DNA from: Alphaproteobacteria bacterium
GTDB taxonomy: Bacteria; Pseudomonadota; Alphaproteobacteria; SP197
DNA length: 64,000 nt
Direction: 5' to 3'
Assembly (NCBI GenBank): GCA_965228895.1
Contig: OZ245842.1
Coordinates: forward strand, 672,001 to 736,000
Below are positions 20,109 through 44,278 of this stretch, piece by piece (the stretch's first letter is position 1; the number at the start of each line of letters is the position of its first letter). The translations under genes were made by a program, and so were the position numbers. The notes beneath the pieces were generated by a model. The model was not told the origin of the DNA. It searched no databases and was given only the letters and a program-made list of their open reading frames with translations.

Positions 20109-20173
20109 CATTCTAGGCGCTTGCTGGAACGATTCAAGGCCGCTTGATCACCCGGCCTGCCCGTCGGAGCAAA

Positions 20174-21730: not shown

Positions 21731-21808
21731 GCTCCGCAGCTCCCAGATGGCCCCGGTCACCCGACCCTTTTCGAGGACTCGACACCTCACCAGCTTTGGC
21801 CGATGATG

Positions 21809-21824
21809 AACTGTGATCACAGTT
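21809..21824. promoter_or_regulatory. Operator palindrome AACTGTGATCACAGTT (site 4 of 4)
   Basis: Perfect 16-bp palindrome between divergent mttB and TMADH-like genes; minus-strand TTGAC just upstream. Confidence 0.8.
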
Positions 21825-21859
21825 GCCGTCAAGCGGTCTGGTGTGGCAATGGGGCTGCC

Positions 21860-23950: not shown

Positions 23951-23953
23951 ACC

Positions 23954-25201: not shown

Positions 25202-25863
25202 CCTACCGCCTCTACCTCGCACCCAATACCTACGCCTTGACGGTCCAAGCGTTGCTCGAGGAACTGGCCGTGCCCCATGAGCTCGTCTGGGTCGGGATCT
25301 TCCAGGACACACCGGACCCGGTGCTCCAAGAGCGCAGCCCCCATCTCAGGGTTCCCGCGCTGGAAGGCGATGGTCTCGTCGTTGTCGAAACGGGTGCAAT
25401 CGCGCTCTATGTCGCCGAACGTCACGGTGACGGCGCGTTAGTGATCCCGCCAGGCGAACCCGACCGGGCGCGATTTCTGCAGTGGCTGCACTACCTGGCG
25501 AGTACGCTCCAGCCCGATGTCTTGATCCAGTTCCATCCGGAGTTCTATGCCGAGGACAAGCCGACGCAGGATCGGATCATGAAGGCGTCAATGGCGCGCC
25601 TGGAAGGTGTCTTCGATGTGCTCAATGACGCGCTTGATCCCGGCCCATATTTTTTTGGCGAGAGACTGACGGTGCTCGATTTTCTGTTCGGCATGCAGGC
25701 GACGTGGCCGGAAATCTATCCGCGCCCCATTGAGGCTTATCCCAACCTGCTGCGCCACCAACAGACCATGCTGGCACGCACGGCGGTGCGCCGAACGCTT
25801 GACATTCACGCCGCCAAACTGCGCGAGCAGGGGCGGTCATTGGAGCTGGCGCTGCCACTTTGA
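25198..25863 (+). CDS. Glutathione S-transferase family protein
   Basis: P..RVPAL, ETGAI..Y, FLQWL and YFFGE..T..D. Confidence 0.88.
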   Translation: MTYRLYLAPNTYALTVQALLEELAVPHELVWVGIFQDTPDPVLQERSPHLRVPALEGDGLVVVETGAIALYVAERHGDGALVIPPGEPDRARFLQWLHYLASTLQPDVLIQFHPEFYAEDKPTQDRIMKASMARLEGVFDVLNDALDPGPYFFGERLTVLDFLFGMQATWPEIYPRPIEAYPNLLRHQQTMLARTAVRRTLDIHAAKLREQGRSLELALPL

Positions 25864-25907
25864 CAAGACACCCCTGGCTGCGGCGCACAACGAGGGAGAG
25901 ACCCGCG

Positions 25908-27230
25908 ATGGCATCCAATCTGCGTTACACCGGCTATTACGAAACACAAGACGCCGGCATTGACGAGGAACTCGCGCGGGTCGGCCGTGGGACGCCATGC
26001 GGCGAATACATGCGCCGCTTCTGGCACCCCGTCGCCATGACGTCCCAGGTCAAGGACGTGCCGCTTCTGATCCGTCGCTTCGGCGAGGACCTCATCCTGT
26101 TCCGCGATAAGCAGGGACGTTATGGGCTGGTGCATCGCCACTGCCCCCATCGCAACGCGTCGCTGGAGTACGGCATCCCGACCGAATGTGGCATCCGTTG
26201 CTGCTATCACGGCTGGCACTTCGACGTCGACGGCACGTTGTTGGAAGCGCCCGCCGAGGCCGATGATACGAAAATCAGGCAGCAAGTGCGGCTGGGCGCC
26301 TATCCGGTGCGCGAGTACCGTGGCCTCGTCTTCGCCTATATGGGTCCGCCGGAGGAGGAGCCGGCGTTTCCGATCTACGATACCTTCGAGATTGAAGACG
26401 GCGAGCTCGTCCCTTACGAGGTCACGCAGCCCTGCAACTGGCTGCAGATCGCCGAGAACTCGTGCGATCCCATGCATGTCGTCTTCCTGCACACGCGCGT
26501 CAACATCGTGCAGTTCACCGAAAAACTGGGCTATTGGCCGGTCATGGACTGGCGCGAACGCCCGATCGGCCTGTTCTATACGAAGGCGCGGCGGGTCAAC
26601 GATTACATCTGGATCTCGACCAACGACGTCATCCTGCCGAACTTCACCCAGGCCGGCGCGGTCTATGAGAACACCGACGGTACCGAACCCAAATACTTCG
26701 GCCGCTGCTCGTTCACCCGCTGGGTCGTGCCGATCGACGACACGCATACGACAATTCTGGCCTACCGCCATTTCAACAAACGCGCAGAGACCGCGCGCGA
26801 CGAATGGCGGACGCCCGAGGCACTCGAGAAGATCGACATCGGCGAGTTGAGGAGCCGCCCCTACGAGGAACGCCAGCGCAACCCCGGCGACTACGAGGCG
26901 TTCGTCGGTCAGGGACCGATCTCACCGCACAAACGTGAGAACCTCGTGACATCCGACAAGGGTGTCGCGATGTACCGCCTGCGGCTGCGCAACGAGATCA
27001 AGAAACTCCAGGCCGGAGAGGCACCTCTTCAACCGGCGGCCTACGTCGATAACCCGATCCCGACCTATGGCAGCGACACGGTCATTCGCTTGCCGGAGTC
27101 AGACGACGACGAGGACGCGATTGCGGCGCTGCAACGCAAGGTCGGCGATGTCTACGAGTCGGCGGACAAGATCAAAGGAGAGGCCCGCTACGACTATCTC
27201 GCCGAACACCTCGCGCTGCTCAACACCTAG
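25908..27230 (+). CDS. Rieske non-heme iron oxygenase alpha subunit (phthalate dioxygenase/LigX-like)
   Basis: GTPCGEYMRRFWHP; Rieske CPH...CCYHGW; mononuclear iron EN..DP.H..FLH. Confidence 0.9.
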   Translation: MASNLRYTGYYETQDAGIDEELARVGRGTPCGEYMRRFWHPVAMTSQVKDVPLLIRRFGEDLILFRDKQGRYGLVHRHCPHRNASLEYGIPTECGIRCCYHGWHFDVDGTLLEAPAEADDTKIRQQVRLGAYPVREYRGLVFAYMGPPEEEPAFPIYDTFEIEDGELVPYEVTQPCNWLQIAENSCDPMHVVFLHTRVNIVQFTEKLGYWPVMDWRERPIGLFYTKARRVNDYIWISTNDVILPNFTQAGAVYENTDGTEPKYFGRCSFTRWVVPIDDTHTTILAYRHFNKRAETARDEWRTPEALEKIDIGELRSRPYEERQRNPGDYEAFVGQGPISPHKRENLVTSDKGVAMYRLRLRNEIKKLQAGEAPLQPAAYVDNPIPTYGSDTVIRLPESDDDEDAIAALQRKVGDVYESADKIKGEARYDYLAEHLALLNT

Positions 27231-27373
27231 GGCGTTTCGGTCTTCTCTAGCTCTTCGATCGGGATCGGGATCGCTAGGTTACAGGCGTGGACGCCCATGG
27301 CGGTGGTGAGCTGGATTGTCTCCGGGATTTCTTCCTTGGTCGCGCCAGCCTTCGAGGCGTTCCGCATGTGGCG
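27227..27373 (-). pseudogene. C-terminal remnant of a carboxymuconolactone decarboxylase (CMD) family gene
   Basis: Manual translation RHMRNASKAGATKEEIPETIQLTTAMGVHACNLAIPIPIEELEKTETP* fits the CMD GAT.EEI motif; upstream frame loses similarity and then hits a stop. Confidence 0.65.
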
Positions 27374-27556: not shown

Positions 27557-27665
27557 AGACCGAGAAAGTGGTTCAAGGTTGGGGAGAGCTTGGCCGCGCC
27601 GACCTGCGTGGCTTGGCGACAAACGGTCGGTCGGACAAACGGCCGCTCACGAGGGGAGATCAGTC

Positions 27666-28775
27666 ATGAAACAGAGTGGGAAGCAGATGTTTGCCCGTAC
27701 GGATCGGCGATCCATGCTTGGCGCAATGGCGGCCGCCGGGGTCGTGCCGGTCGTGGCAGGCGGGTTGGCGCAGACGGCGAAGGCGGCAAGCGACCTTGTT
27801 GTCTTTGACTGGACGGGCTACGAGATTCCGGAGCTGCACCAGGAGTATATTGAGAAGTACGGTACGTCGCCGGACGTCGCCGTCTATGCCGATGTGCACG
27901 AGGCCTTCAACAAGATCCAGGCGGGATTCCGTTGCGACATCGTGCATCCGAACATCTGGGACGTCAGGCGCTTCTACGATGCCGGCCTGTTGCAGCCATG
28001 GGATACGTCGCGGCTGGATCACTGGGGCGATGTCTTCCCGCAGTTCCCGACCATGGCTGGCGCACAGTACGATGGCGAACAGTATCTGATCCCGACTGAT
28101 TGGGGCATCAACGCCTTGATCGTTCGTTCCGACCTTGTCGATCTCGAATCCGCCGAGCCGAGCTGGACCATGCTGTGGGACAGCCAATACGCCGGGCGCC
28201 TTTCGATGAACGCGGAGATGGAAGCGGCGGTCAAGACAACAGCGCTCATCCTGGGCATCGATGACCCATACAACGCGACCGAGGATGAGGTCGCCGCGAT
28301 CCGTGACAAACTGGCTGAACAGCGCGAACTCATCCGGTTCTATTGGTCGGATCCCACCGAGCTTTCACAGGCCATTGCCGCCGGCGAGGTCGTTGCCGCC
28401 TGGGCCTGGCCCCAAGTCTACGGCGATTTGCTGAAGGAAGGCGTTCCCGTCGCCTATCTGACGCCGAAGGAGGGTGTCAACAGCTGGGCCACCGGCTTTG
28501 TTCGTCTTGCCGAGGCGCCGGGCAAGGAGCAGAACGCCTATGACTATGTGGACGCGTGGTTAGCGCCGGGAACCGGCAAGTGGCTGATTGAGAATTATGG
28601 TTACGGCCACACCAATCGGAAGTCCTTCGAAATGGTCTCGCCAGAGGTTTTGGACGAAAAGGGTCTTGCCGATCCCGACGCGATGATCGCCGGCGCCCGT
28701 GCCGGATCCGAGTTCGAACCTCAACTGCGCGACCAACTGGTCAATATGTATGAAGAGATCAAGGCCGGGTTCTGA
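27666..28775 (+). CDS. PotD/PotF-like ABC solute-binding protein, Tat leader, no adjacent permease
   Basis: DRRSML leader; FDWTGY, GEVVAAWAW and PKEG..SW; GAGGGGAG RBS. Confidence 0.85.
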   Translation: MKQSGKQMFARTDRRSMLGAMAAAGVVPVVAGGLAQTAKAASDLVVFDWTGYEIPELHQEYIEKYGTSPDVAVYADVHEAFNKIQAGFRCDIVHPNIWDVRRFYDAGLLQPWDTSRLDHWGDVFPQFPTMAGAQYDGEQYLIPTDWGINALIVRSDLVDLESAEPSWTMLWDSQYAGRLSMNAEMEAAVKTTALILGIDDPYNATEDEVAAIRDKLAEQRELIRFYWSDPTELSQAIAAGEVVAAWAWPQVYGDLLKEGVPVAYLTPKEGVNSWATGFVRLAEAPGKEQNAYDYVDAWLAPGTGKWLIENYGYGHTNRKSFEMVSPEVLDEKGLADPDAMIAGARAGSEFEPQLRDQLVNMYEEIKAGF

Positions 28776-28866
28776 TAGCGCCTGACGTTTCCATGGGTGA
28801 ACCACACAGTCAGCGCGCCGTGCAATTGCAATCTAGGTCAAGGAACTTGTACTCGGTTTTGCACTC

Positions 28867-28874
28867 TGTATACA
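28867..28874. promoter_or_regulatory. TGTATACA box upstream of the second gntR
   Basis: Same 8-bp palindrome as 27530; GntR-like GT..AC core. Confidence 0.5.
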
Positions 28875-28970
28875 TCGGCCCGACGTTTGAGGCGCCGCCT
28901 GCCCCTGTTGCAGTCGGCGCCTCAACGGTGGCCAGGGCCAACCGTTGGGGGTTTCGTGAGCAGATCTGAT

Positions 28971-29735
28971 ATGGCGTCGGTGACCAAGACGCGGCCTGAC
29001 GGTCACAAAACGTCGGCAGACAAGCCGACTTTCACGCGCATCAAGCCGGCAAGCCTGGCCGATGAAGTTGTCGAGCAGATTGTCGAGGCGATCGCCAATG
29101 GCGTCTTGCCGCCTGGTGAACGGCTGATCGAGACCGAGATCGCCAAGCAGCTCCACGTCAGTCGGGTGCCCGTGCGCGATGCGCTCCGCGCGCTGGAGAA
29201 ACAGGGTATCGTGGTTGTGACGCCGCATCGCGGCGCGCGTGTCATGGACATCGATCTCGATCTTTACCGGCAGGTTCAGGAGGTGCGCCTGGACCTGGAG
29301 CTTCGCGCCATCGCTGACTTTTGCGCTCGCCTTGCCGAGGATCCGGCGTACAGCAAGGAACTCGATAGGCATCTGGCTGAACTCGATGCCACGGTGGCCG
29401 CCAATGACCGCGATCATTACAACCAGCTTGACATCGAGTTCCACCGCTGGATTTGCCAATGCGCGCGCAATCATGTCGTCGCCACCCTGTGGGAGGCGTT
29501 GTCGCGACATTTGACGATCCTGCTCGGCCTGATGACAGAGGACTGGCAGGACATCAGGAAGTCACAGGGCGATCATCGAAAACTGGCGCGGCTGATGAAG
29601 GCCAACGATGTTGAGCGCGTCCGCGATCTGATGACCGATCACTTCTTCAAGGATATCGAGCGCGTCGACTACGATCCCGTCATCCACCGATTCACCATGC
29701 GTCCCGCGAAACGGCGGGCAAGACGTGGCCGGTAA
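28971..29735 (+). CDS. GntR-family (FCD) regulator
   Basis: PGERLIETEIAKQL.VSRVPVRDAL; D.EFH. Confidence 0.92.
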   Translation: MASVTKTRPDGHKTSADKPTFTRIKPASLADEVVEQIVEAIANGVLPPGERLIETEIAKQLHVSRVPVRDALRALEKQGIVVVTPHRGARVMDIDLDLYRQVQEVRLDLELRAIADFCARLAEDPAYSKELDRHLAELDATVAANDRDHYNQLDIEFHRWICQCARNHVVATLWEALSRHLTILLGLMTEDWQDIRKSQGDHRKLARLMKANDVERVRDLMTDHFFKDIERVDYDPVIHRFTMRPAKRRARRGR

Positions 29736-29742
29736 GGAAACG

Positions 29743-30585
29743 ATGACGTCTCTTTCAGGCAAGGTCGCGTGGGTGACCGGCGGTGGGACGGGGATGGGCC
29801 GGGCCACCGCGTTGAGGCTCGCCGAGGCGGGCGCCAACGTCGCCATCGGTTCATTGACGGAAGATCTTCGCGGCAACCTGGCCTCGGACCGTCAAACAGC
29901 CCTGACGCCATCCGTTGATCAGCTCACCGATACGGCCGCCGATCTGGAACGTCACGGGGTTCGCGCCTTGGCCATGCCGCTTGACGTGACCGACGATGCC
30001 TCGGTGCGCGACAGTTTCGACGCAGTTGTTCGGGAATTCGGCCCGGTCGACATCCTGATCAACGCCGCCGGAAATTCCGGCCGGCACCCGATCGTCGATC
30101 ATCCCGATACACTCTGGCACGCCATGCTGGATGTAAACCTGACGGGCCCTTACCGCACCACGAAGCTCTGCCTCCCCGGCATGATCGAGCGCGGTTGGGG
30201 GCGGGTCGTCAACTTCTCCTCGACTGCTGGATTGGTCGGCTCGCTCAACCACGCGGCTTATTGCGCGGCCAAATCCGGCTTGCTCGGCCTGACACGCTGT
30301 GTGGCGCAGGAGGGTGCGCCCCACGGCGTCACGTGCAACGCGATCTGTCCGGGTTGGGTGGCGACGGATCAGAACTACGTCGCCAGTTGTCAGGAGATGG
30401 AACTTGCCGGGGTCAAGGAGAAGACCGTTGAAGAGTTCCGCCAGATGATGGTCGAGAAGTGGGTGCCGCAGCGCCGCTTTCTGGAGACCGAGGAGGTTGG
30501 CGCCTTAGTGTCATTCCTGTGCGGCGAGGACGCGCGCGGCATAACTGGTGAGTCCTTGCGCATCTCCGGCGGTTCGCTTTGGTGA
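29743..30585 (+). CDS. Short-chain dehydrogenase/reductase
   Basis: TGGGTGMG, NAAG, YCAAK and NAICPG. Confidence 0.93.
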   Translation: MTSLSGKVAWVTGGGTGMGRATALRLAEAGANVAIGSLTEDLRGNLASDRQTALTPSVDQLTDTAADLERHGVRALAMPLDVTDDASVRDSFDAVVREFGPVDILINAAGNSGRHPIVDHPDTLWHAMLDVNLTGPYRTTKLCLPGMIERGWGRVVNFSSTAGLVGSLNHAAYCAAKSGLLGLTRCVAQEGAPHGVTCNAICPGWVATDQNYVASCQEMELAGVKEKTVEEFRQMMVEKWVPQRRFLETEEVGALVSFLCGEDARGITGESLRISGGSLW

Positions 30586-30663
30586 TATGATTTACGCCGC
30601 GAACAACGAAGGCGATTGCCACGTGCTGTTGGAGGTATTCCGTCAGCTATGCGATCGAAGACG

Positions 30664-31830
30664 ATGAACATCACTGGCATCGAAACCTTCTGTCTCGCCT
30701 GGCGCATGCCCTATCCGATCACCTATGCCAAGGGCGAGTACCAGGATCGCGAGGCGGTACTGGTCAAGGTAACGACCGACGATCCCGACATCGTCGGCTG
30801 GGGCGAGTCCGCCATGTGGGGTGGGCCGCACCCGGCGACCGTCGCCGTTATCGAACGGGAGATCGCGCCGCTCGTCATCGGCGAAGATCCACGCCGGCCC
30901 GAGCTGATCTGGGATAAGGTTTATCACGCGACCTACATGCACGGGCGCAAGGGCATGGTGATCGCCTGCCTTTCCGGCATCGACATCGCGTGCTGGGATA
31001 TCATGGGCAAGGCCGCCGGCCTGCCGCTTTGGCGCTTGCTGGGCGGTTATGGCAAGCCGATCACCTCCTATGCCTCCTCAGGCTACTACCGGCGCGACCA
31101 GTCGCTTGACGCTTTTGCCGCCGTTGTCGCGCAAGCACGCGACGAGGGTTTTCGCGGCTTCAAGATGAAGATTGGCAACATTCCCCAGGTCAACCACCAC
31201 GATGATGTGCCGTTGCGCCATTCGTTCGACGAGGACGTCGCGCGAATCCGCGCTGCGCGCGAGGCTATCGGCGCCGACCGCAATCTGATGGTCGACGGCA
31301 ACTGCGCACTGAACCCGCGTGTCGCGATGCGTTATGCGGAAGAACTGGAGCGGCTGAATGTCCGCTGGTTTGAGGAACCGGTTGAGCCGGAGAATGTTGC
31401 GGGATGTGTCGAGCTCGCGTCACGCACCCGCGTGCCGATCGCCGGTTTCGAGACCGAGACAACGGCCAAGACCTTCGCGCGTCTGATGGATGCCGGCGCA
31501 GTTCAGGTTGCCCAGCCCGACGTCGTGCAAGTCGGTGGTCTGACCGAGATGCGTAAGATCGCTGCCTACGCCCAGATGCGGCACCTCCCCGTGACCGGCA
31601 AGAACTACAGCACGTCACTCGGCCAGGCGGCGACACTTGCCGTGCTGCTGGCGGTGCCCAACGGTGACTATTTCGAATGGGAGTACGATCCGCTGCCATG
31701 GCGCGGCGAGGGTTTTCTGAAGGCGCCGTTCTTCGCCATCGATGATGGCTTGGTGACCGGCGTCGAAACGCCGGGGCTGGGCATTGATGTCGACGAGGGT
31801 AAACTCGCCGCCTGGCGCGTGACGCCCTAG
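30664..31830 (+). CDS. Mandelate racemase/muconate lactonizing enzyme family protein
   Basis: GWGE, SGIDIACWD, KMK, VDGN, FEEP, QPD and PGLGI. Confidence 0.92.
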   Translation: MNITGIETFCLAWRMPYPITYAKGEYQDREAVLVKVTTDDPDIVGWGESAMWGGPHPATVAVIEREIAPLVIGEDPRRPELIWDKVYHATYMHGRKGMVIACLSGIDIACWDIMGKAAGLPLWRLLGGYGKPITSYASSGYYRRDQSLDAFAAVVAQARDEGFRGFKMKIGNIPQVNHHDDVPLRHSFDEDVARIRAAREAIGADRNLMVDGNCALNPRVAMRYAEELERLNVRWFEEPVEPENVAGCVELASRTRVPIAGFETETTAKTFARLMDAGAVQVAQPDVVQVGGLTEMRKIAAYAQMRHLPVTGKNYSTSLGQAATLAVLLAVPNGDYFEWEYDPLPWRGEGFLKAPFFAIDDGLVTGVETPGLGIDVDEGKLAAWRVTP

Positions 31831-31853
31831 ATTAGACCCGAAGAGAGGGAACG

Positions 31854-32579
31854 ATGAGACTTGCCTTCTGGCTGATAGCCGATAGCCAGGTTGCTTGCGA
31901 GGTCGCAGCCAAATGCGGTTATGACATCGTTTTGCTCGACTTGGAGCACGGCGTGTTGGACGTCCAGGCGCTCGACCGGCTGGTGCCGTTCTGTCGGGCG
32001 ATCGGCCTTGCCGTTTATGCGCGCGTTGCGGCTGCGGAGCGGGTGCCGGTTCAGCATGCCCTGGATGTCGGCGCCGACGGCGTGATCCTGCCGCAAATTC
32101 AAAATGTCGCCCATGCGCGGGAAGTCACGGCCTATGCCAAGTACCCGCCGGCCGGTACGCGCGGCATGGGGTTCAGCCGCATTCAGGGCTATGCCGGTGT
32201 CGGCGACGACTTTGCGCCTTCAGAGAACAAACGAACCTTGTGCTTTCCGATGATCGAGACCCCCGGCGCGCTCGCCGACTGCGAGGCGATTGCCGGGCTC
32301 GATACGGTCGATGGTTTGTTCGTTGGACCAAGCGATCTTGGCATGACACGCGGCCGCGGCCAGGATCAGTGGAGCCAGGAAGGCATCGACGACATCCGCA
32401 AGGCCGCTGACGCGGCGAAGAAGGCCGGCAAGCGGTTCGCGACGACCGGTGCGGAATCCCAGGTGGCTCGCGCCTTCGGTGACGAGGTCGGCGCGGACTT
32501 CATGTCCGCCGGTGACGACCTCTCGGCGCTCGTCATTGGCTTCGAAGGGCTCATCACGATGGCGCGCGAGCCCGCGTAG
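31854..32579 (+). CDS. HpcH/HpaI class II pyruvate aldolase
   Basis: DLEHG, LD.GA.G, YPP.G.RG, MIET and VGPSDL. Confidence 0.9.
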   Translation: MRLAFWLIADSQVACEVAAKCGYDIVLLDLEHGVLDVQALDRLVPFCRAIGLAVYARVAAAERVPVQHALDVGADGVILPQIQNVAHAREVTAYAKYPPAGTRGMGFSRIQGYAGVGDDFAPSENKRTLCFPMIETPGALADCEAIAGLDTVDGLFVGPSDLGMTRGRGQDQWSQEGIDDIRKAADAAKKAGKRFATTGAESQVARAFGDEVGADFMSAGDDLSALVIGFEGLITMAREPA

Positions 32580-32635: not shown

Positions 32636-34324
32636 TCATCCCCCTCTGTGCTTGAAACTGTCGCGCCGGAAGCTATAGAGCGCCGCCGGGTCGACCGCGA
32701 CATCGACAACCGCCGGTTTGCCGCATTGAAGCGCCGCCTCGACGGCCTCGCCCAACTCGCCGATGCGTTCGACACGAAAACCCGCTGCGCCATAAAGTTC
32801 GGCTGCCTTGTCGAAGGGCGGGCTGCTGACGTCGGCGCCGATATAGCGTTCGCCGAAGAAGTCGCGCTGATACGCTTTCTCCGCGCCCCAGCACTTGTTG
32901 TTCATAACGACGGTGACCGTGTTGATGCCATGGTCGACGGCGGTGCTGAGTTCGGAGATGGTCATGCCGAAACCGCCATCGCCCATCAGGCTGACGACCG
33001 GCCGCTCGGGGCGGCCGATTTTGATGCCGAGACCACAGGCGAATGAAAAGCCGACCAGGCCGAAGTCGAGCGGCGTGAAGAGGCTCGGCGGCTCCCAGTA
33101 GTTCAAGGCGTCCGTTGCCTGCAGGCAGAGCGTGCCGGCATCCAGCGTGATCGCGGCATCGCGCGGCAGGACGTCGCGCAGGACCTTGAAGAGGCCGGAC
33201 GGTTGGATCGGATGGGCATCGGTCGCCGCGTCGGCGTCCCGTTTTTTCAGGTAGGCCGCGCGCTCACTCGCGAACTGTTTTGTCCACGCTTCGACTTCCG
33301 CGCGCTTTGCCTGGTTGGCGACGGCGTCGCGCAACTGCAGCGCCGCCGTCGGTGCGTCCGCCCAGATACCGACGGCAACCGGGAAGTAGCGGCCTATGGC
33401 GGTCGGCTCCAGCTCAGTCTGGATGATCGCCGCCTTCTCGTTGATGTTGTCGTACGAATAGAACGTCGAGTTGAAACCCAGCCGTGTGCCAAGCGCCAGG
33501 ATGACATCCGCTTCCTTGGCCAGCCGTGACGCGACAGGATTGCCGCGCGGCCCCATCTGGCCGGCATTCAACGGATGGCCGAAGGGAATGGCGTCGCCAT
33601 GGCCGGGTGCGGTGACAACCGGCGCATTCAAAGCCTCGGCGAGCTCGAGGGCTTCGGCGTGACCGCCGGTATTCTTGATGCCGCCGCCGGCGACGATGAC
33701 CGGCCGTTCCGCGCCGCGCATCAGGTCGGCCGCCTGCTGGATCGCTTCTGCCGCGCCGGCGGGCACATGATGCGAGCGGTATGATGCGGGATCCTGGAAG
33801 GGCGGAAAGTCAGCAGTCGCCGACAACACGTCGCGCGGCAGGTTGAGCTGCACGGGGCCACGCCGGGGCGTCATGGCGACACGAAAGGCCTCGCGAAACA
33901 TCTCGGGCACGCGGTCCACCTGGGTCGCCGTCCAGGTCTTCTTGGTGACCGGGGTGAACAGCGCCTGCTGGTCGACCTCCTGAAAGGCATCGCGGTAGAC
34001 GTGGCCGGAAGAGAGCGATCCGGCGATCGAGACGACCGGCGAAAAAGCCGCGGCGGCTTGGCCCAGGCCCGTGACCAGATTGGTTGCGCCCGGGCCGTTC
34101 TGCCCGGCCAGGATGACGCCCGCCCGCCCCGTCGCGCGCGCATAACCGTCGGCCATGTGGGTGCCGGTGCGTTCGTCATGCACCCCAATGAAACTGATCT
34201 CCGGTGCATCGTAGAGCGCATCGAAAATCTCCATGGTCGCCGAGCCGATCAGGCCGAACACGTGCTCGACCTTTTCGGCCTTCAGCGCTTCGACGGCGGC
34301 TTGGCCGCCAGACAGTTTCTTCAT
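32636..34324 (-). CDS. ThDP-dependent enzyme, sulfoacetaldehyde acetyltransferase (Xsc)-like
   Basis: FGLIGSA, QNGPG.TN, FQE.DQ, GDGGFGM...NN and WGAEK motifs. Confidence 0.8.
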   Translation of the reverse strand: MKKLSGGQAAVEALKAEKVEHVFGLIGSATMEIFDALYDAPEISFIGVHDERTGTHMADGYARATGRAGVILAGQNGPGATNLVTGLGQAAAAFSPVVSIAGSLSSGHVYRDAFQEVDQQALFTPVTKKTWTATQVDRVPEMFREAFRVAMTPRRGPVQLNLPRDVLSATADFPPFQDPASYRSHHVPAGAAEAIQQAADLMRGAERPVIVAGGGIKNTGGHAEALELAEALNAPVVTAPGHGDAIPFGHPLNAGQMGPRGNPVASRLAKEADVILALGTRLGFNSTFYSYDNINEKAAIIQTELEPTAIGRYFPVAVGIWADAPTAALQLRDAVANQAKRAEVEAWTKQFASERAAYLKKRDADAATDAHPIQPSGLFKVLRDVLPRDAAITLDAGTLCLQATDALNYWEPPSLFTPLDFGLVGFSFACGLGIKIGRPERPVVSLMGDGGFGMTISELSTAVDHGINTVTVVMNNKCWGAEKAYQRDFFGERYIGADVSSPPFDKAAELYGAAGFRVERIGELGEAVEAALQCGKPAVVDVAVDPAALYSFRRDSFKHRGG

Positions 34325-34358
34325 GCCGGTCTTCCTTATCACGAACGGGGGCGGTGCA

Positions 34359-35156
34359 TCAGGACAGTGTCTCGCCCAGGAACCGCAAAATGGGATCGGT
34401 AAAAAGCTCGGGCTCCTCGGCAAGCCCCATGTGCTGGAGGTGCGGCACGATGACGGTCTGTGCGCCTGCAATTTCGCCCGCGATCGCGTACGACATGGCC
34501 GGTGTGCTGCCGGTGTCGTTCTCGGTGGTGATGACGAGCGTGGGCGCGGTAATCGGTGGGTCCGGTCGGATCAGCTCGATCACACCCTGGGCCAGCACCT
34601 GGCGGGCCTGGGCGTAGACGTCCGCGTCATTGGCCAGGATCCATTGCCGGGCAAGCGCGATAATCTCCGGCTGTTTTTCGCGAAAGCCGGGCGTGAACCA
34701 ACGCGCGATCGACGTGTCGAGATTGGCCGCCGGACCGCCGGCGGCCGTGTCGGCGGCGCGGTCCTCGACCAGCTTTTGCGCTTCAGGGCTGCGCTCGTGG
34801 GGCGAGTTGAGGATGGCAAGCGCAGAGGCCCGATCGGGATAATCCATGACGAAGCGCCGGTTGATCATGCCGCCGAGCGAATAGCCGACGACAGCCGCCT
34901 TGCCGATACCCAGGTGGTCGAGCAGAGCGCGCAGCTGACTTGCAAACACCGGTAAGGAAAGCACGGCGCCGGCCCGCGCACTTTCGCCATGGCCACAGAG
35001 GTCATAGCTGATCACGCGGTAGCGTTCTGCCAGCGCCGGAAGGTGCCATTGCCACATGTGTCGGTTCATGCCGAGACCGTGGATCAGCACAACGACCGGT
35101 TTGGTCTGAGGACCATCAATGCTGAAAGCGGTCCCGTCGTTGGTGCGTCCGGTCAT
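34359..35156 (-). CDS. Alpha/beta hydrolase (TgnD / enol-lactonase-like)
   Basis: HGLG, D..GHG.S, GYSLGG nucleophile elbow and late His. Confidence 0.88.
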   Translation of the reverse strand: MTGRTNDGTAFSIDGPQTKPVVVLIHGLGMNRHMWQWHLPALAERYRVISYDLCGHGESARAGAVLSLPVFASQLRALLDHLGIGKAAVVGYSLGGMINRRFVMDYPDRASALAILNSPHERSPEAQKLVEDRAADTAAGGPAANLDTSIARWFTPGFREKQPEIIALARQWILANDADVYAQARQVLAQGVIELIRPDPPITAPTLVITTENDTGSTPAMSYAIAGEIAGAQTVIVPHLQHMGLAEEPELFTDPILRFLGETLS

Positions 35157-35187
35157 CGTGTTCTTTCTGCCCTATCCGCTTCGGCGA

Positions 35188-36225
35188 TCAGGCGAAGGCG
35201 GGGATGACCTCGGAACAGAAGAGCTCGAGCGAGCGTTTTTGTTCCTTCAGGCCAAGACCCATGCTGGCGTAGTAGACAAACTCGTCGACGCCCAGGTCCT
35301 CATAGCGCTTCAGCTTGGCGATCACCTCGTCCGGCGTGCCGAACATCAGGTTCTCGCTGAGCATCTTGGGATCGTATTCGTCACGGTTGCCCAGCTCGTC
35401 GAACGGGATCGACTTGGGGAAACCATCGTCGACGTCACCGAGATTCTTGAACAGGTTCTCGAACTGACTGAGTTGCCGCTGTGCTGCTTTTACGGGTACT
35501 TCCCACTCGTCCTTGCTGTCGTAGACGGCGGTATGGCGCATCATCGCGAAGATCGGCCGGGTAGCGCCCGGATGGGCATCCATCGCTTCGTCGAGGCGGG
35601 ATTTGTAAAGCTCGGCCTCCGAGAACGGACGGGTGAGTGGCCACGACACGATGTGGCAACCGTGCTTGACCGCGTAGTCATAGGTGATCGGCGCGCGCGC
35701 CGCGACCCAGATCGGCGGATGCGGCTTTTGCAACGGCTTTGGCACCGAGGTCGATGTCGGGAACGTCCAGAATTCGCCGTCGTGTTCGTAGTCGCCGGCC
35801 CACAGCGCCTTCAATGCCGGTAGCATTTCGTGCATGTAGCGCCAGCCGTCGGTCTGTTTGAGGCCTGGCTGCATGCGGTCGAATTCGCGCTGATAGGCGC
35901 CCGAACCGATGCCGAACTCCAGCCGGCCGCCGCTGATCAGATCGACAAAGGCGGCCTCTCCCGCCAGCTCGATGGGATGCCAATAGGGCGCGACGACAAC
36001 CGCTGTGCCCAGCCGGATACGGTCCGTGTGATCGGCCCACCAGGTCAGGATCGTGAACGGATTGGGCGCGATGGTCATTTCCAGCGCGTGGTGCTCGGCC
36101 GCCCAGGCAATGTTGAAGCCGCCCTGATCGGCCATCTGGACCATTTCGAGCGTATGGCGCGCAACCTCGGCCATGTCCTGGCTGTCGTCCATGCGTTCCA
36201 TGTTGATGGCGATCTGAAATTTCAT
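35188..36225 (-). CDS. LLM-class flavin-dependent monooxygenase (TgnB-like)
   Basis: EHHA.E.TIAPNPF, WHPI.LAGEAA, GDY.HDGEFW.FPTSTSVPKP.Q.PHPP. Confidence 0.88.
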   Translation of the reverse strand: MKFQIAINMERMDDSQDMAEVARHTLEMVQMADQGGFNIAWAAEHHALEMTIAPNPFTILTWWADHTDRIRLGTAVVVAPYWHPIELAGEAAFVDLISGGRLEFGIGSGAYQREFDRMQPGLKQTDGWRYMHEMLPALKALWAGDYEHDGEFWTFPTSTSVPKPLQKPHPPIWVAARAPITYDYAVKHGCHIVSWPLTRPFSEAELYKSRLDEAMDAHPGATRPIFAMMRHTAVYDSKDEWEVPVKAAQRQLSQFENLFKNLGDVDDGFPKSIPFDELGNRDEYDPKMLSENLMFGTPDEVIAKLKRYEDLGVDEFVYYASMGLGLKEQKRSLELFCSEVIPAFA

Positions 36226-36333
36226 GGCGTTCCCTTTCTCCCTAACAAGGCTCGACTTGGCGTCGAACCGCTCTAGCCTCCGGCGCGACCTTTGACCAGC
36301 CCTTCCGCGCGATCACGGTGCCGACGAACCCCA

Positions 36334-37815
36334 TCACCGTGCAACAAACTGGCTGCCGAGCGGCTCATCGGACGTGTTCATCCACACGGTCTTGGGCCGG
36401 GTGTAGTCGTGCATGGCCTGCAGCCCGCTTTCGCGGCCATAGCCTGAACCTTTGACGCCGCCGAACTCGGCGATGGGCGAGACCGCACGGTAGGTGTTGA
36501 CCCAGACAATGCCGGCTTTGACGGCGCGCGCCATCCTGAGCGATCGCGCGCTGTCGCGGGTAAAAATGCCGGCGGCCAGGCCGTGTTTGGTGTCGTTGGC
36601 CAGGCGGATGACATCGGCTTCGTCCTTGAACCGAAGGACACTCAAGACCGGCCCAAAGAGCTCAGTATCGACGATCCGCAAGTCCTGGCGCGGGCAGGCG
36701 ATGATCGTCGGTTCGTAATACAGGCCTTCCAGACCTTGGGGACGCTTGCCGCCGCACAGGAGCTCTCCGCCTTCGATCTGTGCCTGGGCGACCTCTCGCT
36801 CGATCATGTCGAGCTGCGCTTGGGTGCAAATCGGACCCATCTGCGTTTCGTCGGCCAGCGGGTCGCCGATCACAATTCGACCAGCCTGCGCGACCATGCG
36901 TTCAAGGAAGGTGTCGGCAATGCCTTCCTGCAAGTAGAGCCTGGAGCCGGCCACGCAGCTCTGGCCCGCTGCGCCGAAGATGCCGGATATGGCGCCGTTG
37001 ACCGCGCTTTCCAGGTTGACGTCATCGAACACGATGAAGGGCGACTTGCCGCCCAGTTCCAACGACACCTCGGCAAAGTTGTTGGTCGAGTTGTGGAGGA
37101 CATGCTGGGCGGCGATCGGGCCGCCGGTGAACGAGATGCGTGCGACCAGCGGATGTGAGGTGAGCACCCGGCCGCAGGGATCGCCATGGCCGGTCACGAT
37201 GTTGACGACGCCGGGCGGGATGCCCGCCTGGTCGATCAAACGGCCGAACGTCAGCATTGCCGCCGACGCATGCTCCGATGCCTTCAGCACGATCGTGTTG
37301 CCGGCGGCGAGTGCCGGACCAATCTTGACCGCGCTCAGAAAGAGCTGCGAGTTCCATGGCACCACCGCCGCGACGACTCCGAGCGGCTCGCGGTCGGTGA
37401 AGACGAACATGTCGGGCTTGTCGATGGGCAGCGTTTCGCCGCTCACCTTGTCGGCGCAGCCGGCGTAGAAATGAAAGAACTCGGCGATGTACTGAGCCTG
37501 CCAGCGGGTTTCCTTGAACAGCTTGCCGGTATCGATGGCCTCGATCCGTCCGAGCTCTTCGGACGTCTCCGCCAACAGATCGGCCAGGCGGCGCAGGCAG
37601 TGGCCGCGCTGGGTCGGGGTCATGGTTGCCCATGGTCCGTCGTTGAAGGCGCGATCGGCGGCGCGCACCGCGCGGTCGACATCGTCGGCGGTCGCCTCGG
37701 GAACCCTTGACCAGATTTCGCCAGTCGCCGGGTTGATGCTGTCGAACGCCGCGCCGTCGGACGCGTCCACCCACACACCATCGATCAGCATCTGAAAGGC
37801 CTGAACATCGGCCAT
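36334..37815 (-). CDS. Aldehyde dehydrogenase (TgnC-like)
   Basis: PWNSQLFLS, FTGG, LELGGKSP, GQSC and ELFGPV; GGAGG RBS before ATG 37815. Confidence 0.92.
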   Translation of the reverse strand: MADVQAFQMLIDGVWVDASDGAAFDSINPATGEIWSRVPEATADDVDRAVRAADRAFNDGPWATMTPTQRGHCLRRLADLLAETSEELGRIEAIDTGKLFKETRWQAQYIAEFFHFYAGCADKVSGETLPIDKPDMFVFTDREPLGVVAAVVPWNSQLFLSAVKIGPALAAGNTIVLKASEHASAAMLTFGRLIDQAGIPPGVVNIVTGHGDPCGRVLTSHPLVARISFTGGPIAAQHVLHNSTNNFAEVSLELGGKSPFIVFDDVNLESAVNGAISGIFGAAGQSCVAGSRLYLQEGIADTFLERMVAQAGRIVIGDPLADETQMGPICTQAQLDMIEREVAQAQIEGGELLCGGKRPQGLEGLYYEPTIIACPRQDLRIVDTELFGPVLSVLRFKDEADVIRLANDTKHGLAAGIFTRDSARSLRMARAVKAGIVWVNTYRAVSPIAEFGGVKGSGYGRESGLQAMHDYTRPKTVWMNTSDEPLGSQFVAR

Positions 37816-37882
37816 GGAAGCGTCCTCCGCCACGATTCGCCTGTGGCGGCAATCTGGCGGGAACTCATAGTTTTGTGAAACG

Positions 37883-37916
37883 AAATATATTGTATATTTA
37901 GTTCGATAAAGTCGAA
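37883..37916. promoter_or_regulatory. LysR-type divergent control region
   Basis: AT-rich dyad AAATATATTGTATATTT and T-N11-A dyad TTCGATAAAGTCGAA (37902-37916). Confidence 0.6.
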
Positions 37917-37933
37917 TTCTCGGAGGTGGATCG

Positions 37934-38770
37934 ATGAATATGACGGGGCTTCAAACGTTTCTCGCGATTGTCGAAACCGGGAGCCTGGTCCGCGCGTCCG
38001 AGCAGCTGAACGTCGCCCAATCGACCGTGACCGCAAGGTTGAATGCGCTGGAAGCCGATCTGGGTCAAAGCCTATTGCATCGTCAAAAGTCCGGCGCGGC
38101 GCTGACCGCATCCGGCGTCAAATTCAAGCGCTACGCGGAGGTGATGACGGAGCTTTGGCGCCAGGCGCGCCAGGAAACGTCGCTGCCGGCCGGCATTGAG
38201 ACCGTCTGCAACATCGGCTGCGACATGGATCTGTGGCCGGTGCTGGGCCGCCGGTTCTTTGGCGACATCGTCGACGGTCATCCGGAAACGGCTCTATCCG
38301 TCCTACCCGGCGGTCCGGCGGATCTCGACCGATGGCTTGGCACCGGTTTGGTTGACGCAGTACTCAGCTATCAACCGACCGCGCGCGAGAACCAGACGGT
38401 TGTCGCGCTGCGCAACGAGCGTCTGGTCCTGGTGTCGACAAGGCCCGACAGCCCGATCCGCTTCGACCCCGGCTATGTCTATGTCGACGCGGGCGAGGAT
38501 TTTGGCCGCCGTCATGCGGCAGCCTACGCCGATGCCGACACCGCCACGATCAGTTTCGGCTGCGCGGTTTGGGCGCTCGACCATCTGTTGGAGCACGGTG
38601 GATCAGCCTATCTGCCTGAAAGCCTCGCTGCATCAGACCTCGCCGTCGGCAGGCTGCACCTTATCGACGGCGCGCCGGTCTTTTCGCGCACCGCCTACCT
38701 CATCACCAACGATGCGGCCGCCGCCGACTGGCCCTGGTTGCCAGCGCTTGTCGATCGGCTCTCGGCGTAG
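37934..38770 (+). CDS. LysR-family regulator
   Basis: N-terminal HTH GSLVRASEQLNVAQSTVTARL..LE. Confidence 0.92.
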   Translation: MNMTGLQTFLAIVETGSLVRASEQLNVAQSTVTARLNALEADLGQSLLHRQKSGAALTASGVKFKRYAEVMTELWRQARQETSLPAGIETVCNIGCDMDLWPVLGRRFFGDIVDGHPETALSVLPGGPADLDRWLGTGLVDAVLSYQPTARENQTVVALRNERLVLVSTRPDSPIRFDPGYVYVDAGEDFGRRHAAAYADADTATISFGCAVWALDHLLEHGGSAYLPESLAASDLAVGRLHLIDGAPVFSRTAYLITNDAAAADWPWLPALVDRLSA

Positions 38771-38789
38771 GCCGTGAATTCGCCTGCGG

Positions 38790-40136
38790 TCAGACCATGC
38801 TTTTGACGTCCGCCGAGAAGGTCGGGAAGGCGTAGATCTGATCGCGCAGATCGGCGGCCGGAATGCCGTGGCGCATGGCGAGCGCGAAGAGGTGGATCAG
38901 CTCCTCGGCCTGATGACCGACCAGATGAGCGCCGACGATGCAGTCGCTCTCCGCATCGACCAGGGTCTTGGCGAAGGCGACCGTTTCGGCATAGGTGCGC
39001 CCGGAGAACCATTCGGTCATGTCCGACGTCACCACCTTGACATTGATGTCGCGTTCACGGGCTTGCTCTTCGGTCAGGCCGACGCTGCTCAGCGCCGGCA
39101 CCGTATAGACACTGCTCGGGATGGCATCGTAGTCGGGTTTCGTGGTCGGGCCGTTGACGATGTTGTTGCCGACGATCCGCCCTTCGTAGGTTGCGACGGG
39201 CGAAAGTTGGGCGGAGTGAACGAGCGCGTCGCCCGCCACCCACACCGCGGGATTGGAGATCGAGCGCAAGTAGTCGTCGACCTCGACGCGGATGCCGTCA
39301 TGGGCGATCCCAGCCACTTCCAGATCAAGCGCATCGACATTGGCGACCCGGCCCGCGCCGTTGACGACGCGCGTCGCTGTCTGCTGATGGGCTTTGCCGC
39401 CGTGTTCGTAGTCGACGCGGAGCTGGCCGCCGGCCTCGCTGATCTTCTGCACCGAGACGCCGGTCTTGACCGTGACGCCTAACCGTTCCGTCTCCGCCCG
39501 GATCGCGTCGACCGCATCGTGGTCGAGGCGCGGCAAGAGTCTTGGCAGCGCTTCCAGGATTGTGACTTTTGCGCCGGCACGCGCATAGACGTGACTGAAC
39601 TCCATGGCGATGACGCCGCCGCCGATAAAGATGACGGACTCAGGCATGGTTGTTTCCGACAACACCTCATCGGAGGTGATCATCAGTTCGGCGCCGGGGA
39701 TCGGCAGGGATCGGGGTTTCGAGCCTGTCGCGATGACGATGCTCTCGCCCTCGATCGTGCGGCCGTCGACATCGATTGTGTTGGGACCGGTGAAGCGGGC
39801 GTTGCCGGTGATGGCGGTGCCGCGCTGCTCCGCCAGCTTGCGCATGCTGCCCGGGATCGGCGCGATCAGGTCCTTTTCGCGGTCGATCATCGCCGCCCAA
39901 TCCAGACGTGGCTCACCGACGGTGATGCCGTGGGCCTTTGCCCGCTCGATTTCGTCGAGGCTATGGGCGGCGGCAACCAGCACCTTTTTGGGCGTACAAC
40001 CACGATTGGGACAGGTGCCGCCGAAGTCGCGGTCTTCGATCAAGGCAAGGCTCTTGCCGGCGCTGTGCACCATGCTCGATACACCGAACCCGGCATTGCC
40101 GGCGCCCAGGATGACAACATCAAACTTTTCGGTCAT
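38790..40136 (-). CDS. Class I pyridine nucleotide-disulfide oxidoreductase (glutathione reductase-like)
   Basis: GAGNAG, GGTCPNRGCTPKK, IATGS, GGG.IA.E and FPTF. Confidence 0.88.
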   Translation of the reverse strand: MTEKFDVVILGAGNAGFGVSSMVHSAGKSLALIEDRDFGGTCPNRGCTPKKVLVAAAHSLDEIERAKAHGITVGEPRLDWAAMIDREKDLIAPIPGSMRKLAEQRGTAITGNARFTGPNTIDVDGRTIEGESIVIATGSKPRSLPIPGAELMITSDEVLSETTMPESVIFIGGGVIAMEFSHVYARAGAKVTILEALPRLLPRLDHDAVDAIRAETERLGVTVKTGVSVQKISEAGGQLRVDYEHGGKAHQQTATRVVNGAGRVANVDALDLEVAGIAHDGIRVEVDDYLRSISNPAVWVAGDALVHSAQLSPVATYEGRIVGNNIVNGPTTKPDYDAIPSSVYTVPALSSVGLTEEQARERDINVKVVTSDMTEWFSGRTYAETVAFAKTLVDAESDCIVGAHLVGHQAEELIHLFALAMRHGIPAADLRDQIYAFPTFSADVKSMV

Positions 40137-40187: not shown

Positions 40188-40652
40188 TTACAGGCCGAGG
40201 TCGGAAAGCCCCGGGTGATCGTCGGGACGTCGTCCGTCGGGCCAGAAGTACTTTCTGTCCTCATCGGTGATCGGCAGGTCGTTGATGCTGGCAATTCGCC
40301 GACGCATCAGGCCGGACTCATCGAACTCCCAGTTCTCGTTGCCGTAGGAACGGAACCACTGTCCGCCGTCGTCATGCCACTCATAGGCAAATCGCACGGC
40401 GATACGGTTGCCGCCGGTCGTCCACAGTTCCTTGATCAGGCGATAATCGAGCTCGCGTGCCCATTTTCGTTTTAAGAAGGCGATGATCGCGTCGCGGCCT
40501 TGCAGGAACTCCGCGCGGTTGCGCCATCGGCTGTCGACCGTGTAGGCCTGGGCAACCCGTTCGGGGTCGCGGCTGTTCCAGGCGTCCTCGGCAAGCCGCG
40601 CTTTCTGGGCTGCGGATTCCGTGTCAAACGGCGGAAGTGGTGGGTGGGTCAT
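40188..40652 (-). CDS. DUF1348 / NTF2-like protein
   Basis: [26 protein letters not shown] and [10 protein letters not shown]. Confidence 0.92.
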
Positions 40653-40655
40653 GAG

Positions 40656-41090
40656 CTAGTTCCCGGACGATGGTTGTTGATCCGCAAACCGAAAACCCGC
40701 TGATGCCGTCGTTAAGCCCGTCACGTGGCGGGCATCGGCTTGATTTGATTCGATTTCGAGACGGGCGATCATCGAGGGGTGGAACCGACAAAAATAGTCT
40801 TGGACCATGTCAGCTATGATGACTGTCTGCCACGTACCGCCGGTTTCGATTTCTCCAGAATCCCAACTTTCGTCATTCGATGTGACGGTGTGCGAGACGA
40901 TGTCATCATTGATCCAGACCACAACGTCGCCGACAGATAGGGTCGGGTTTTCGGGGGTAAACTCAAACCCCTGAATGTGAATAACAACGTGCTTACCCTC
41001 GGCAGGCCGTGCCACAGTCGCAGCAAGAAGTGAGATTATGGCGGCAAGCGCCGCCATAATCATCATCGTCGGAATCTGTCGCATTACCAT
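40656..41090 (-). CDS. Exported amicyanin/plastocyanin-like cupredoxin
   Basis: Signal peptide; type-1 Cu ligands H(TVT)...C-x2-H-x2-M. Confidence 0.85.
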   Translation of the reverse strand: MVMRQIPTMMIMAALAAIISLLAATVARPAEGKHVVIHIQGFEFTPENPTLSVGDVVVWINDDIVSHTVTSNDESWDSGEIETGGTWQTVIIADMVQDYFCRFHPSMIARLEIESNQADARHVTGLTTASAGFRFADQQPSSGN

Positions 41091-41095
41091 CGGTT

Positions 41096-41650
41096 TCAGT
41101 TCTGCAAGGTCTCGACCATGTTCGCGGCGTGCATTTCATGGGCCTTGAAGATGACGAGAGCCTCTTCGAACAACGACCTAACTTCTGCATTCTCGATGTT
41201 CGGGATAAACGTTGTCTCAACAAGGCCGTTGACTGCTGTGTGATAGCTAAGTTCGTTTTCAGCATAACGACGGTCGAAGGTTTCGCCACTTAACTGTCTC
41301 AATTCGTTGACCAACTGGTCGGCCTGCTGGTTGAGCTGCTGGCTCAGAAAGTTGTCTTCGGGCGAAACGTCGAGCTTTGCCAATAAGGCAAGCGCCTTTT
41401 CGTTAACCGCCTCGTGGTCTCGGATCATCGTTTGTGCAAACTCGCGAATCGCTGGATTGTCGGAAAGAGCCAGGGCAAGGTGTGCATAGCGGATGTCGAT
41501 GGAATCGGCCGTGTAGGCAACATGCGCGATCTCCAAGTCATTAAGATCGGCGGGTGACTCGGCCAAGGCTGGGCTAACCAGCGTCGAAAGGGCGGACGCC
41601 ACGGCCACAAAGGCCACGTATGCCGAAGCGAGTATTGTATTCCTCAACAT
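41096..41650 (-). CDS. DUF4142 (ferritin-like) exported protein
   Basis: LNDLEIAH, FA.TMIRDH and FD..Y..NE..YH; AAAGGAG RBS before ATG 41650. Confidence 0.85.
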   Translation of the reverse strand: MLRNTILASAYVAFVAVASALSTLVSPALAESPADLNDLEIAHVAYTADSIDIRYAHLALALSDNPAIREFAQTMIRDHEAVNEKALALLAKLDVSPEDNFLSQQLNQQADQLVNELRQLSGETFDRRYAENELSYHTAVNGLVETTFIPNIENAEVRSLFEEALVIFKAHEMHAANMVETLQN

Positions 41651-41780
41651 GTCATTTTCTCCTTTGGTTCGGGTTGGTGCGACATAGGCTGCAGACAGCG
41701 AAAGTCCGCTATGCCGCCTACTGATGACGTGTGCGATGAGAGCAAACATCAAACTACGTGATGGCCCCGACGTCGGCGGA

Positions 41781-44278
<2,498 letters not shown>

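Follow-up and report, generated by a model that had tools for sequence, protein, structure and literature searches.

What does a thiamine diphosphate (ThDP)-dependent enzyme do at the end of an operon whose other genes resemble those that open the ring of trigonelline? The operon in question lies in a stretch of 64,000 nucleotides (here called the window) from an alphaproteobacterial genome (G000), corresponding to positions 672001 to 736000 of its contig C1; features of the window are given below in window positions and all other genes of this genome in C1 positions. Trigonelline and related pyridinium betaines are abundant osmolytes of algae and plants, from whose breakdown marine bacteria obtain carbon and nitrogen. 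The operon, which runs from an aldehyde dehydrogenase (ALDH) through a luciferase-like flavin-dependent monooxygenase (LLM) and an alpha/beta hydrolase to the ThDP enzyme, is a new variant of the trigonelline (Tgn)-type ring-cleavage system with an uncharacterized ThDP partner. We lean toward seeing it as a reduced member of a marine Tgn-like branch that would dismantle an N-methylpyridinium carboxylate betaine by way of an alternative lower branch.

The operon is real and conserved, and all five genes that a sequence-only reading of this DNA had described as an operon divergent from a LysR gene were found in place. The LysR-family regulator (37934 to 38770, plus strand; HTH_1, 62.3 bits; LysR_substrate, 33.5 bits) faces away from four minus-strand genes, namely, the TgnC-like ALDH (36334 to 37815; PF00171, 537.6 bits), the TgnB-like LLM (35188 to 36225; PF00296, 187.6 bits; 345 amino acids [aa]), the TgnD-like or PcaD-like hydrolase (34359 to 35156; Abhydrolase_1, 104.6 bits; 265 aa), and the ThDP-dependent enzyme (32636 to 34324). 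The ALDH gene likely starts at the ATG at 37815, preceded by GGAGGA (493 aa), rather than at the GTG at 37833. The longest open reading frame (ORF) of the ThDP gene, to 34471, would overlap the hydrolase gene by 113 nt; its start was corrected to the ATG at 34324, preceded by AAGGAAG, which gives a protein of 562 aa, the length of nearly all its homologues. The intergenic gaps of 108, 31, and 34 nt make the arrangement operon-like. The ThDP enzyme has three domains (TPP_enzyme_N, M, and C at 112.7, 118, and 120.5 bits) as in the POX/ALS type, an intact cofactor motif GDG-N24-NN at residues 448 to 476, and the activating Glu in HDERTG, while the GYSLG motif of the hydrolase and the ELGGK and GQSC motifs of the ALDH are also intact. 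Read from the sequence, the divergent promoter/operator region (37816 to 37933, 118 nt) holds two palindromes, AAATATA-TTG-TATATTT (37884 to 37900) and TTCGA-TAAAG-TCGAA (37902 to 37916), that could act as LysR boxes; a consensus scan of the region gave no sigma-70-like site. LysR homologues 50 to 68% identical diverge beside the same cluster in related loci (L061, L062, L069, L078, L095, L159, and L161, among others).

Across phyla, genes of the ThDP family travel together with those for the hydrolase and the LLM. We mapped 80 genome loci centered on LLM genes (61 to 97% identity) with the proteins of the window and of representative loci; a ThDP orthologue (76 to 94% identical) was present in 23 of them and in 14 of the 43 that had at least 5 kb on both sides (full-flank loci, leaving 29 without ThDP). 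Directly upstream of the ThDP gene stands the same type of hydrolase as in the window in 13 of these 14 loci. This hydrolase type occurs in only 5 of the 29 loci without ThDP, and 19 of the 29 have another type, found in none of the 14. An enoyl-CoA hydratase (ECH) module was present in 17/29 loci without ThDP and 0/14 with it; the ThDP module and the ECH/dehydrogenase module are thus mutually exclusive and never occur together across the full-flank loci. The two kinds of loci also differ in having a non-TgnC ALDH nearby (13/29 without ThDP against 1/14 with it), a contrast that is weak, as 10 of the 13 are near-identical single-cell genomes.

A second set, centered on the ThDP enzyme (80 metagenome loci, 64 to 86% identity, of which 69 have room upstream and 35 full flanks), agrees with the first. 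The hydrolase lies directly upstream of the ThDP gene in 49 of the 69 loci and an LLM is present in 25 of the 35; with an identity threshold of 75% for the ThDP enzyme, the numbers rise to 15/18 full-flank loci for the LLM and 16/18 for the hydrolase. The window itself, with the order LLM-hydrolase-ThDP, is a marine hydrolase-ThDP cluster as defined here, and its exact five-gene form, LysR / ALDH-LLM-hydrolase-ThDP, recurs in L159/L161 and in L153/L154/L185. The order of the four operon genes is also kept in L023, whose contig ends inside the ALDH gene and does not cover the LysR position. The sequence-only reading would have been refuted by a ThDP gene that does not travel with the other three; the 23 LLM loci, the close ThDP loci, and the spread across phyla show it traveling with the hydrolase and the LLM. 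It is most improbable that the ThDP gene is a mere neighbor with a role of its own, acetolactate synthase-like or as another carboligase, unrelated to ring cleavage. Enzymes of this superfamily are versatile, and 10 of the 35 full-flank loci, GMC oxidoreductase-linked ones among them, have no LLM, as such a neighbor would lead one to expect. However, the hydrolase-ThDP order is kept in Alphaproteobacteria, Gammaproteobacteria, and a metagenome-assembled genome (MAG) labeled Chloroflexota, only 34 nt separate the two genes here, and 81 of 100 members of the ThDP family are tied to an LLM or to this hydrolase.

Four forms of the gene group can be distinguished. The first, from Alphaproteobacteria (L061, L062, L069, L078, and L095), reads LysR / reductase-ALDH-LLM-AA_synth-hydrolase-ThDP-(CMD)-OpuAC/ABC, so that the full cluster terminates in a betaine-type ABC importer. 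In the second, genes for the other hydrolase type, AA_synth, RidA, and a reductase that is frequently fused to a CoA-transferase face ALDH-LLM-ECH-3-hydroxyacyl-CoA dehydrogenase (HCDH)-BKACE and sometimes a succinate-semialdehyde dehydrogenase (SSADH); this form is also carried by Parasedimentitalea and Aminobacter plasmids. In the third, labeled Gammaproteobacteria, the order is MttB ... hydrolase-ThDP-(CMD)-LLM ... class II aldolase, and the fourth is a hydrolase-LLM pair without ThDP. A CMD gene follows the ThDP gene in 14/22 and in 30/66 loci. The operon ALDH is 71 to 82% identical to its homologues in the marine clusters. The ECH/HCDH/BKACE clusters (e.g., on Parasedimentitalea marina pW43B and Aminobacter pSR3 and in the single-cell genomes L079 to L093) share with the operon LLMs 73 to 81% and ALDHs 71 to 79% identical, but they differ in a hydrolase only 32 to 51% identical, in RidA, in the frequent CoA-transferase-reductase fusion, in the occasional SSADH, and in never carrying the ThDP gene.

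The LLMs themselves give no sign of different substrates. On the tree, sequences from ThDP loci are intermingled with those from loci that lack ThDP, one clade of 22 (SH-aLRT 99) mixing both, and the two groups cannot be told apart at any single column of the alignment, the best candidates being variable, surface-like positions. Since an LLM has to bind the ring together with its substituent, this intermixing indicates that both kinds of loci most likely share their ring substrate; they part ways beyond the ALDH step, in the type of hydrolase and in what follows it.

From these patterns we infer the substrate, the order of the steps, and the part played by the ThDP enzyme as follows. The substrate would be trigonelline or a close analogue. 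The LLM would open the ring to an aldehyde or lactol, using reduced flavin from a reductase encoded elsewhere in the genome, and the ALDH would oxidize the product. The TgnD-like hydrolase would then release formate, methylamine, and a C4 aldehyde acid, and the ThDP enzyme, the fixed partner of this hydrolase type, would take over the aldehyde-level product. It would thus occupy the place that SSADH or the CoA-dependent module holds in other clusters. Its fixed position behind the hydrolase, the exclusion of the ECH module, and the absence of an encoded semialdehyde dehydrogenase together suggest that it handles the aldehyde-level product of the hydrolase.

Which reaction might this be? The sequence-only reading had taken the ThDP enzyme to be Xsc-like, i.e., similar to the enzyme that desulfonates sulfoacetaldehyde, a resemblance that holds only in a loose sense. 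The Xsc models were the best among the NCBIfam models, but their scores fell far below the cutoffs (402.1 against 676.4 bits for TIGR03457 and 422.5 against 620 for NF005713), with acetolactate synthase close behind (371.4 bits). When the whole genome was searched for Xsc, the ThDP enzyme scored 401.9 bits, and a true Xsc, at 4135110 to 4136837 of C1, scored 972.6 bits. Xsc identity was therefore rejected. The two proteins have in common the ThDP superfamily, the three-domain build, and a similar length, whereas they are 33% identical, and no pta or sulfite gene was seen near the ThDP gene. The true Xsc gene adjoins (4133634 to 4136837) the gene of an OpuAC-type binding protein that is 47% identical to that of the full ThDP clusters.

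Judging from its sequence relationships, the ThDP enzyme belongs to an unnamed, highly conserved, and uncharacterized family that is not Xsc. More than 120 protein clusters 81 to 95% identical to it, from Alphaproteobacteria, Gammaproteobacteria, and beyond, all have generic names, as do the ESM Atlas matches to it and to the ALDH. Its best solved relative in a PDB sequence search was BbmA (2.5e-70), followed by acetolactate synthases and glyoxylate carboligase, with no solved Xsc among the matches; in the literature on BbmA/CsmA we found nothing informative on the ThDP enzyme. In the ThDP tree, with true Xsc as the root, the family is a single tight clade (SH-aLRT 97) separated from Xsc by a very long branch. 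The lineages linked to GMC oxidoreductases are nested among those linked to an LLM or a hydrolase. These members, 64 to 73% identical to the ThDP enzyme, mostly precede a GMC oxidoreductase and a CMD gene (L163/L164, L188, L193/L194, L196, L198, and L158), with TauE and a PF03601 exporter as further genes in L163/L164, an NMT1/ABC system in L188, and an acyl-CoA carboxylase and a ligase in L198; they may represent a sulfonate or hydroxy-acid route. The literature searched contained no description of a ThDP enzyme in a trigonelline-type cluster, within a scope that did not extend to Perchat et al. (2018), which may show related synteny.

More distant paralogues of the enzyme have other partners. 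One, 48% identical, is encoded in this genome at 0.94 Mb (944802 to 950000 of C1; L017) and is not Xsc either (411 bits against the cutoff of 620); beside it are an MttB gene and an OYE/FAD oxidoreductase. Paralogues of about 50% identity (loci L104 and L106 to L118 among them) are present in 28 of 32 genomes of the family and follow an OYE/FAD oxidoreductase in the 15 loci of relatives that were mapped. On the Ruegeria pomeroyi megaplasmid (339974 to 349294; L211), a paralogue of 44% identity is encoded last in an operon, after MttB, a class III aminotransferase, and two FAD oxidoreductases; a literature search by locus tag gave no clue to its function. The MttB/OYE-linked paralogues may mark an uncharacterized route from betaine to aldehyde, and both contexts suggest that the wider ThDP family takes aldehydes from the enzyme that precedes it. 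As the family and its paralogues stand beside ring-cleavage genes, MttB-type demethylase genes, and GMC oxidoreductase genes, one answer could explain three kinds of clusters.

The sequence-only reading had further proposed a variant pathway for a different, possibly sulfonated, betaine. A Tgn-like variant gene set is indeed what we find, but the different, sulfonated ring is possible without being supported. The chemistry behind it would be that of an analogue bearing on its ring a group that cannot be lost as CO2, e.g., N-methylpyridinium-3-sulfonate. Xsc-type elimination needs a leaving group beside the aldehyde; hydrolysis in this case would yield succinate semialdehyde with the sulfonate next to the aldehyde, and elimination would give a succinyl-level product and sulfite. 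We consider such a substrate unlikely, although it would assign the ThDP enzyme a clear role and would agree with the Xsc models scoring best on it (422.5 and 402.1 bits; acetolactate synthase, 371.4) and with the lack of a semialdehyde dehydrogenase in the ThDP loci. The GMC-linked sister group, with its TauE and PF03601 exporter (L163/L164) and NMT1-type ABC system (L188), points the same way, and the gene order around the R. pomeroyi paralogue would fit methylated taurine. Against it, the Xsc scores are far below the cutoffs in a genome that has a true Xsc elsewhere, and TauE-family proteins are common and were seen beside only one GMC-linked lineage. The LLM would also have to recognize the ring substituent, and yet the LLMs intermix and no column separates them. 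We know of no natural pyridinium sulfonate.

The gene neighborhoods point in the same direction. No pta, sulfite exporter or dehydrogenase, or taurine or isethionate gene was found among the ORFs scanned between 14.8 and 44.3 kb of the window, a scan that took in part of the ORFs there, nor among those scanned in seven LLM-linked loci (L029, L035, L045, L061, L078, L095, and L137), except in L045, where one TauE gene precedes the hydrolase by about 5 kb on its upstream side. Together with the intermixed LLMs, this result weighs against a sulfonated substrate. It is quite unlikely, to our mind, that the ThDP protein founds a new family whose reaction within ring cleavage is an elimination like that of Xsc or phosphoketolase, such as the removal of sulfite from 2-sulfo-succinate semialdehyde derived from an undescribed marine sulfonated pyridinium osmolyte; if it did, the product would be at the succinyl level and a dehydrogenase would be unneeded.

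Returning to the carboxylate betaine that we prefer as substrate, a further issue is whether the pathway still works in this genome. A stretch of about 47 codons on the minus strand (27233 to 27373), detected by tblastn, is 70% identical to residues 75 to 121 of a 127-aa CMD protein and is the C-terminal remnant of a CMD-family (PF02627) gene, with in-frame stop codons upstream. It is separated by 5.2 kb from the ThDP gene, across five plus-strand genes (27579 to 32579) encoding a PotD-like solute-binding protein (SBP), GntR, SDR, an MR/MLE dehydratase, and an HpcH aldolase. By its appearance, an insertion or rearrangement broke an ancestral ThDP-CMD pair. The related MAG L024 (about 84% nucleotide identity) keeps LLM-hydrolase-ThDP. 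It is collinear with the window except that it lacks two segments, 36307 to 38792 (LysR-ALDH) and 40643 to 42180 (DUF4142/hypothetical), and its sequence downstream of the ThDP gene is entirely unlike that of the window. Ratios of nonsynonymous to synonymous substitution rates (dN/dS) between the two are 0.031 for the LLM, 0.166 for the hydrolase, and 0.045 for the ThDP gene, so these three genes are under purifying selection. A search of 60 relatives gave the ThDP orthologue in the same genus (2/2) and nowhere else, the rest of the family having the paralogue only, and it was found in 0 of 400 sampled genomes of the phylum (E ≤ 1e-150); this fits a patchy distribution and transfer of the gene.

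An operon without reductase and AA_synth genes, with CMD cut down to some 47 codons behind an inserted five-gene block, with a relative that has lost the LysR and ALDH genes, and with an orthologue so restricted among relatives could be the decaying remnant of a full cluster that no longer supports a pathway here. We regard this as very unlikely, since the four reading frames are intact, the catalytic motifs are kept, and the dN/dS values are low, and since the same reduced five-gene form exists in separate metagenome lineages. CMD is in any case missing from about half of the ThDP loci. The missing reductase, too, may be supplied from elsewhere: as the sequence-only reading had it, no flavin reductase adjoins the operon, and all six PF01613 matches of the genome are outside the window (none within it), but one of the six is 66% identical to the reductase of a ThDP-bearing cluster. 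A reductase accompanies 5 of the 14 full-flank ThDP loci, and many related ThDP loci have AA_synth. AA_synth homologues are present at 3205771 and 1414258 of C1, SSADH-like genes also occur outside the operon, and around the distant homologues of the reductase and of AA_synth there were no other genes of the cluster.

The operon LLM has two further paralogues in this genome. The first, 67% identical, is part of a fuller Tgn-like cluster (3961900 to 3971000 of C1; L015) with a beta-lactamase-family hydrolase, an SBP, an ALDH (70%), RidA, LysR, a flavin reductase, ECH, and HCDH, and with BKACE just beyond. The other, 65% identical (1277690 to 1278721 of C1), has a class II aldolase gene and one of the TauD family nearby.

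How closely is the operon related to the Tgn genes? None of the NCBIfam equivalog models reaches its cutoff for any of the four operon proteins, every match of the ALDH included. Proteins 83 to 84% identical to the LLM bear the JGI name of TgnB (flavin-dependent trigonelline monooxygenase, oxygenase component), and proteins 64 to 67% identical to the hydrolase bear that of TgnD, (E)-2-((N-methylformamido)methylene)succinate hydrolase. The comparison with Tgn was made through look-alike plasmid clusters, in place of the proteins of Acinetobacter baylyi ADP1 themselves. Identities of the LLM, ALDH, and hydrolase were 39.9, 52.2, and 30.7% to the cluster on an Acinetobacter venetianus plasmid (AA_synth, hydrolase, reductase, LLM, ALDH, and permease), 42.4, 54.5, and 27.6% to that on Sinorhizobium meliloti pSymA, which lies beside noeA/noeB (GntR, AA_synth, hydrolase, flavin reductase, LLM, ALDH, NIPSNAP, ABC system, and SSADH), and 51.3, 45.5, and 33.1% to that on Agrobacterium fabrum pAtC58 (212496 to 231530; L207), consisting of reductase, ALDH, LLM, hydrolase, CMD, NIPSNAP, AA_synth, hydroxyacid reductase, and ProXWV. 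In L207, the hydroxyacid reductase replaces SSADH, a further variant of the lower pathway, and rhizobial plasmids carry by the hundreds LLMs 40 to 50% identical to that of the operon. Two papers state that trigonelline catabolism in S. meliloti requires pSymA; from this dependence and from its gene content, the pSymA cluster is probably the trigonelline locus. Like TgnC, the operon ALDH adjoins the oxygenase, and it is 52 to 54% identical to the ALDHs of the A. venetianus and pSymA clusters. The close resemblance of ALDH and LLM to TgnC and TgnB claimed by the sequence-only reading is thus genuine as a likeness but overstated in degree, and the hydrolase, which it placed with TgnD by family, is a candidate TgnD, with homologues of that JGI name and an identity of 27.6 to 30.7% to the hydrolases of these two reference clusters. 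The homarine hom operon was also considered as a match and rejected, its gene set, as described in PMC13236597, being different.

Several points weigh against a pathway for a trigonelline-like betaine. The LLM is only 40 to 42% and the hydrolase only 28 to 31% identical to their counterparts in two of the reference clusters (A. venetianus and pSymA), for which reason a different heterocycle may be the target of the marine branch; the trigonelline role of the pSymA cluster is a probable one, and the steps and products assumed for the Tgn pathway are those of ADP1 enzymology, with the look-alike clusters as the link to it. Without an oxidant or a partner substrate, succinate semialdehyde does not suit any ThDP reaction known to us. 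In addition, the operon lacks a reductase and AA_synth and has CMD only as a remnant, L024 does without the LysR and ALDH genes, and the placement of the LLM paralogues in separate clusters hints at differing substrates. No expression data were found for the operon, and no RNA run was listed.

In its favor, genes for methylated amines (MttB, DgcA-like, creatinase-like, and Rieske) occur in the window as well. The region from 14866 to 27230 is rich in such genes, including an Opp-type ABC system, a creatinase-like M24 protein, a glutathione S-transferase, an MttB-family methyltransferase (20174 to 21832; 616 bits), a fused OYE/FAD oxidoreductase (21572 to 23950), and a Rieske oxygenase (25860 to 27230). 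On the other side of the operon is a PNPOx-FNR-2Fe2S fusion (42179 to 44278) with a weak GbcB-like match.

As the locus survey shows, the known Tgn scheme is one among several lower routes built on the same ring-opening enzymes, and the hallmark of another is a very conserved ThDP enzyme that has so far had only generic names. Its reaction, once found, would supply a further step of a widespread catabolic pathway and maybe a new ThDP chemistry on an aldehyde acid.

Among known systems, the protocatechuate branch offers a partial parallel in its PcaC/PcaD pair. The hydrolase matches PcaD models best, and a CMD (PcaC-family) gene often lies behind the ThDP gene; however, all the PcaD models are below their cutoffs (162.5 against 255.85 bits for the best), and CMD survives here only as a remnant. 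The expected chemistry of the hydrolase presumably parallels that of the 2-(acetamidomethylene)succinate hydrolase of vitamin B6 breakdown. Neither the protocatechuate branch nor vitamin B6 breakdown uses a ThDP enzyme, to our knowledge. The closest comparison is with the Tgn enzymes, reportedly defined by Perchat et al. in 2018. As in tgn of A. baylyi ADP1, an LLM oxygenase, an ALDH, and an alpha/beta hydrolase are together in one operon, and the related full ThDP clusters also share with tgn-type clusters a flavin reductase, AA_synth (PF06684), and a betaine-type importer. The operon described here differs in having no reductase, no AA_synth protein (TgnF), and no SSADH (TgnE), and in adding the ThDP enzyme, of which none is annotated within about 9 kb on either side of the pSymA, A. 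venetianus, and A. fabrum clusters. As far as sequence comparison can tell, the pathway encoded by the operon is homologous to Tgn but forms a separate branch.

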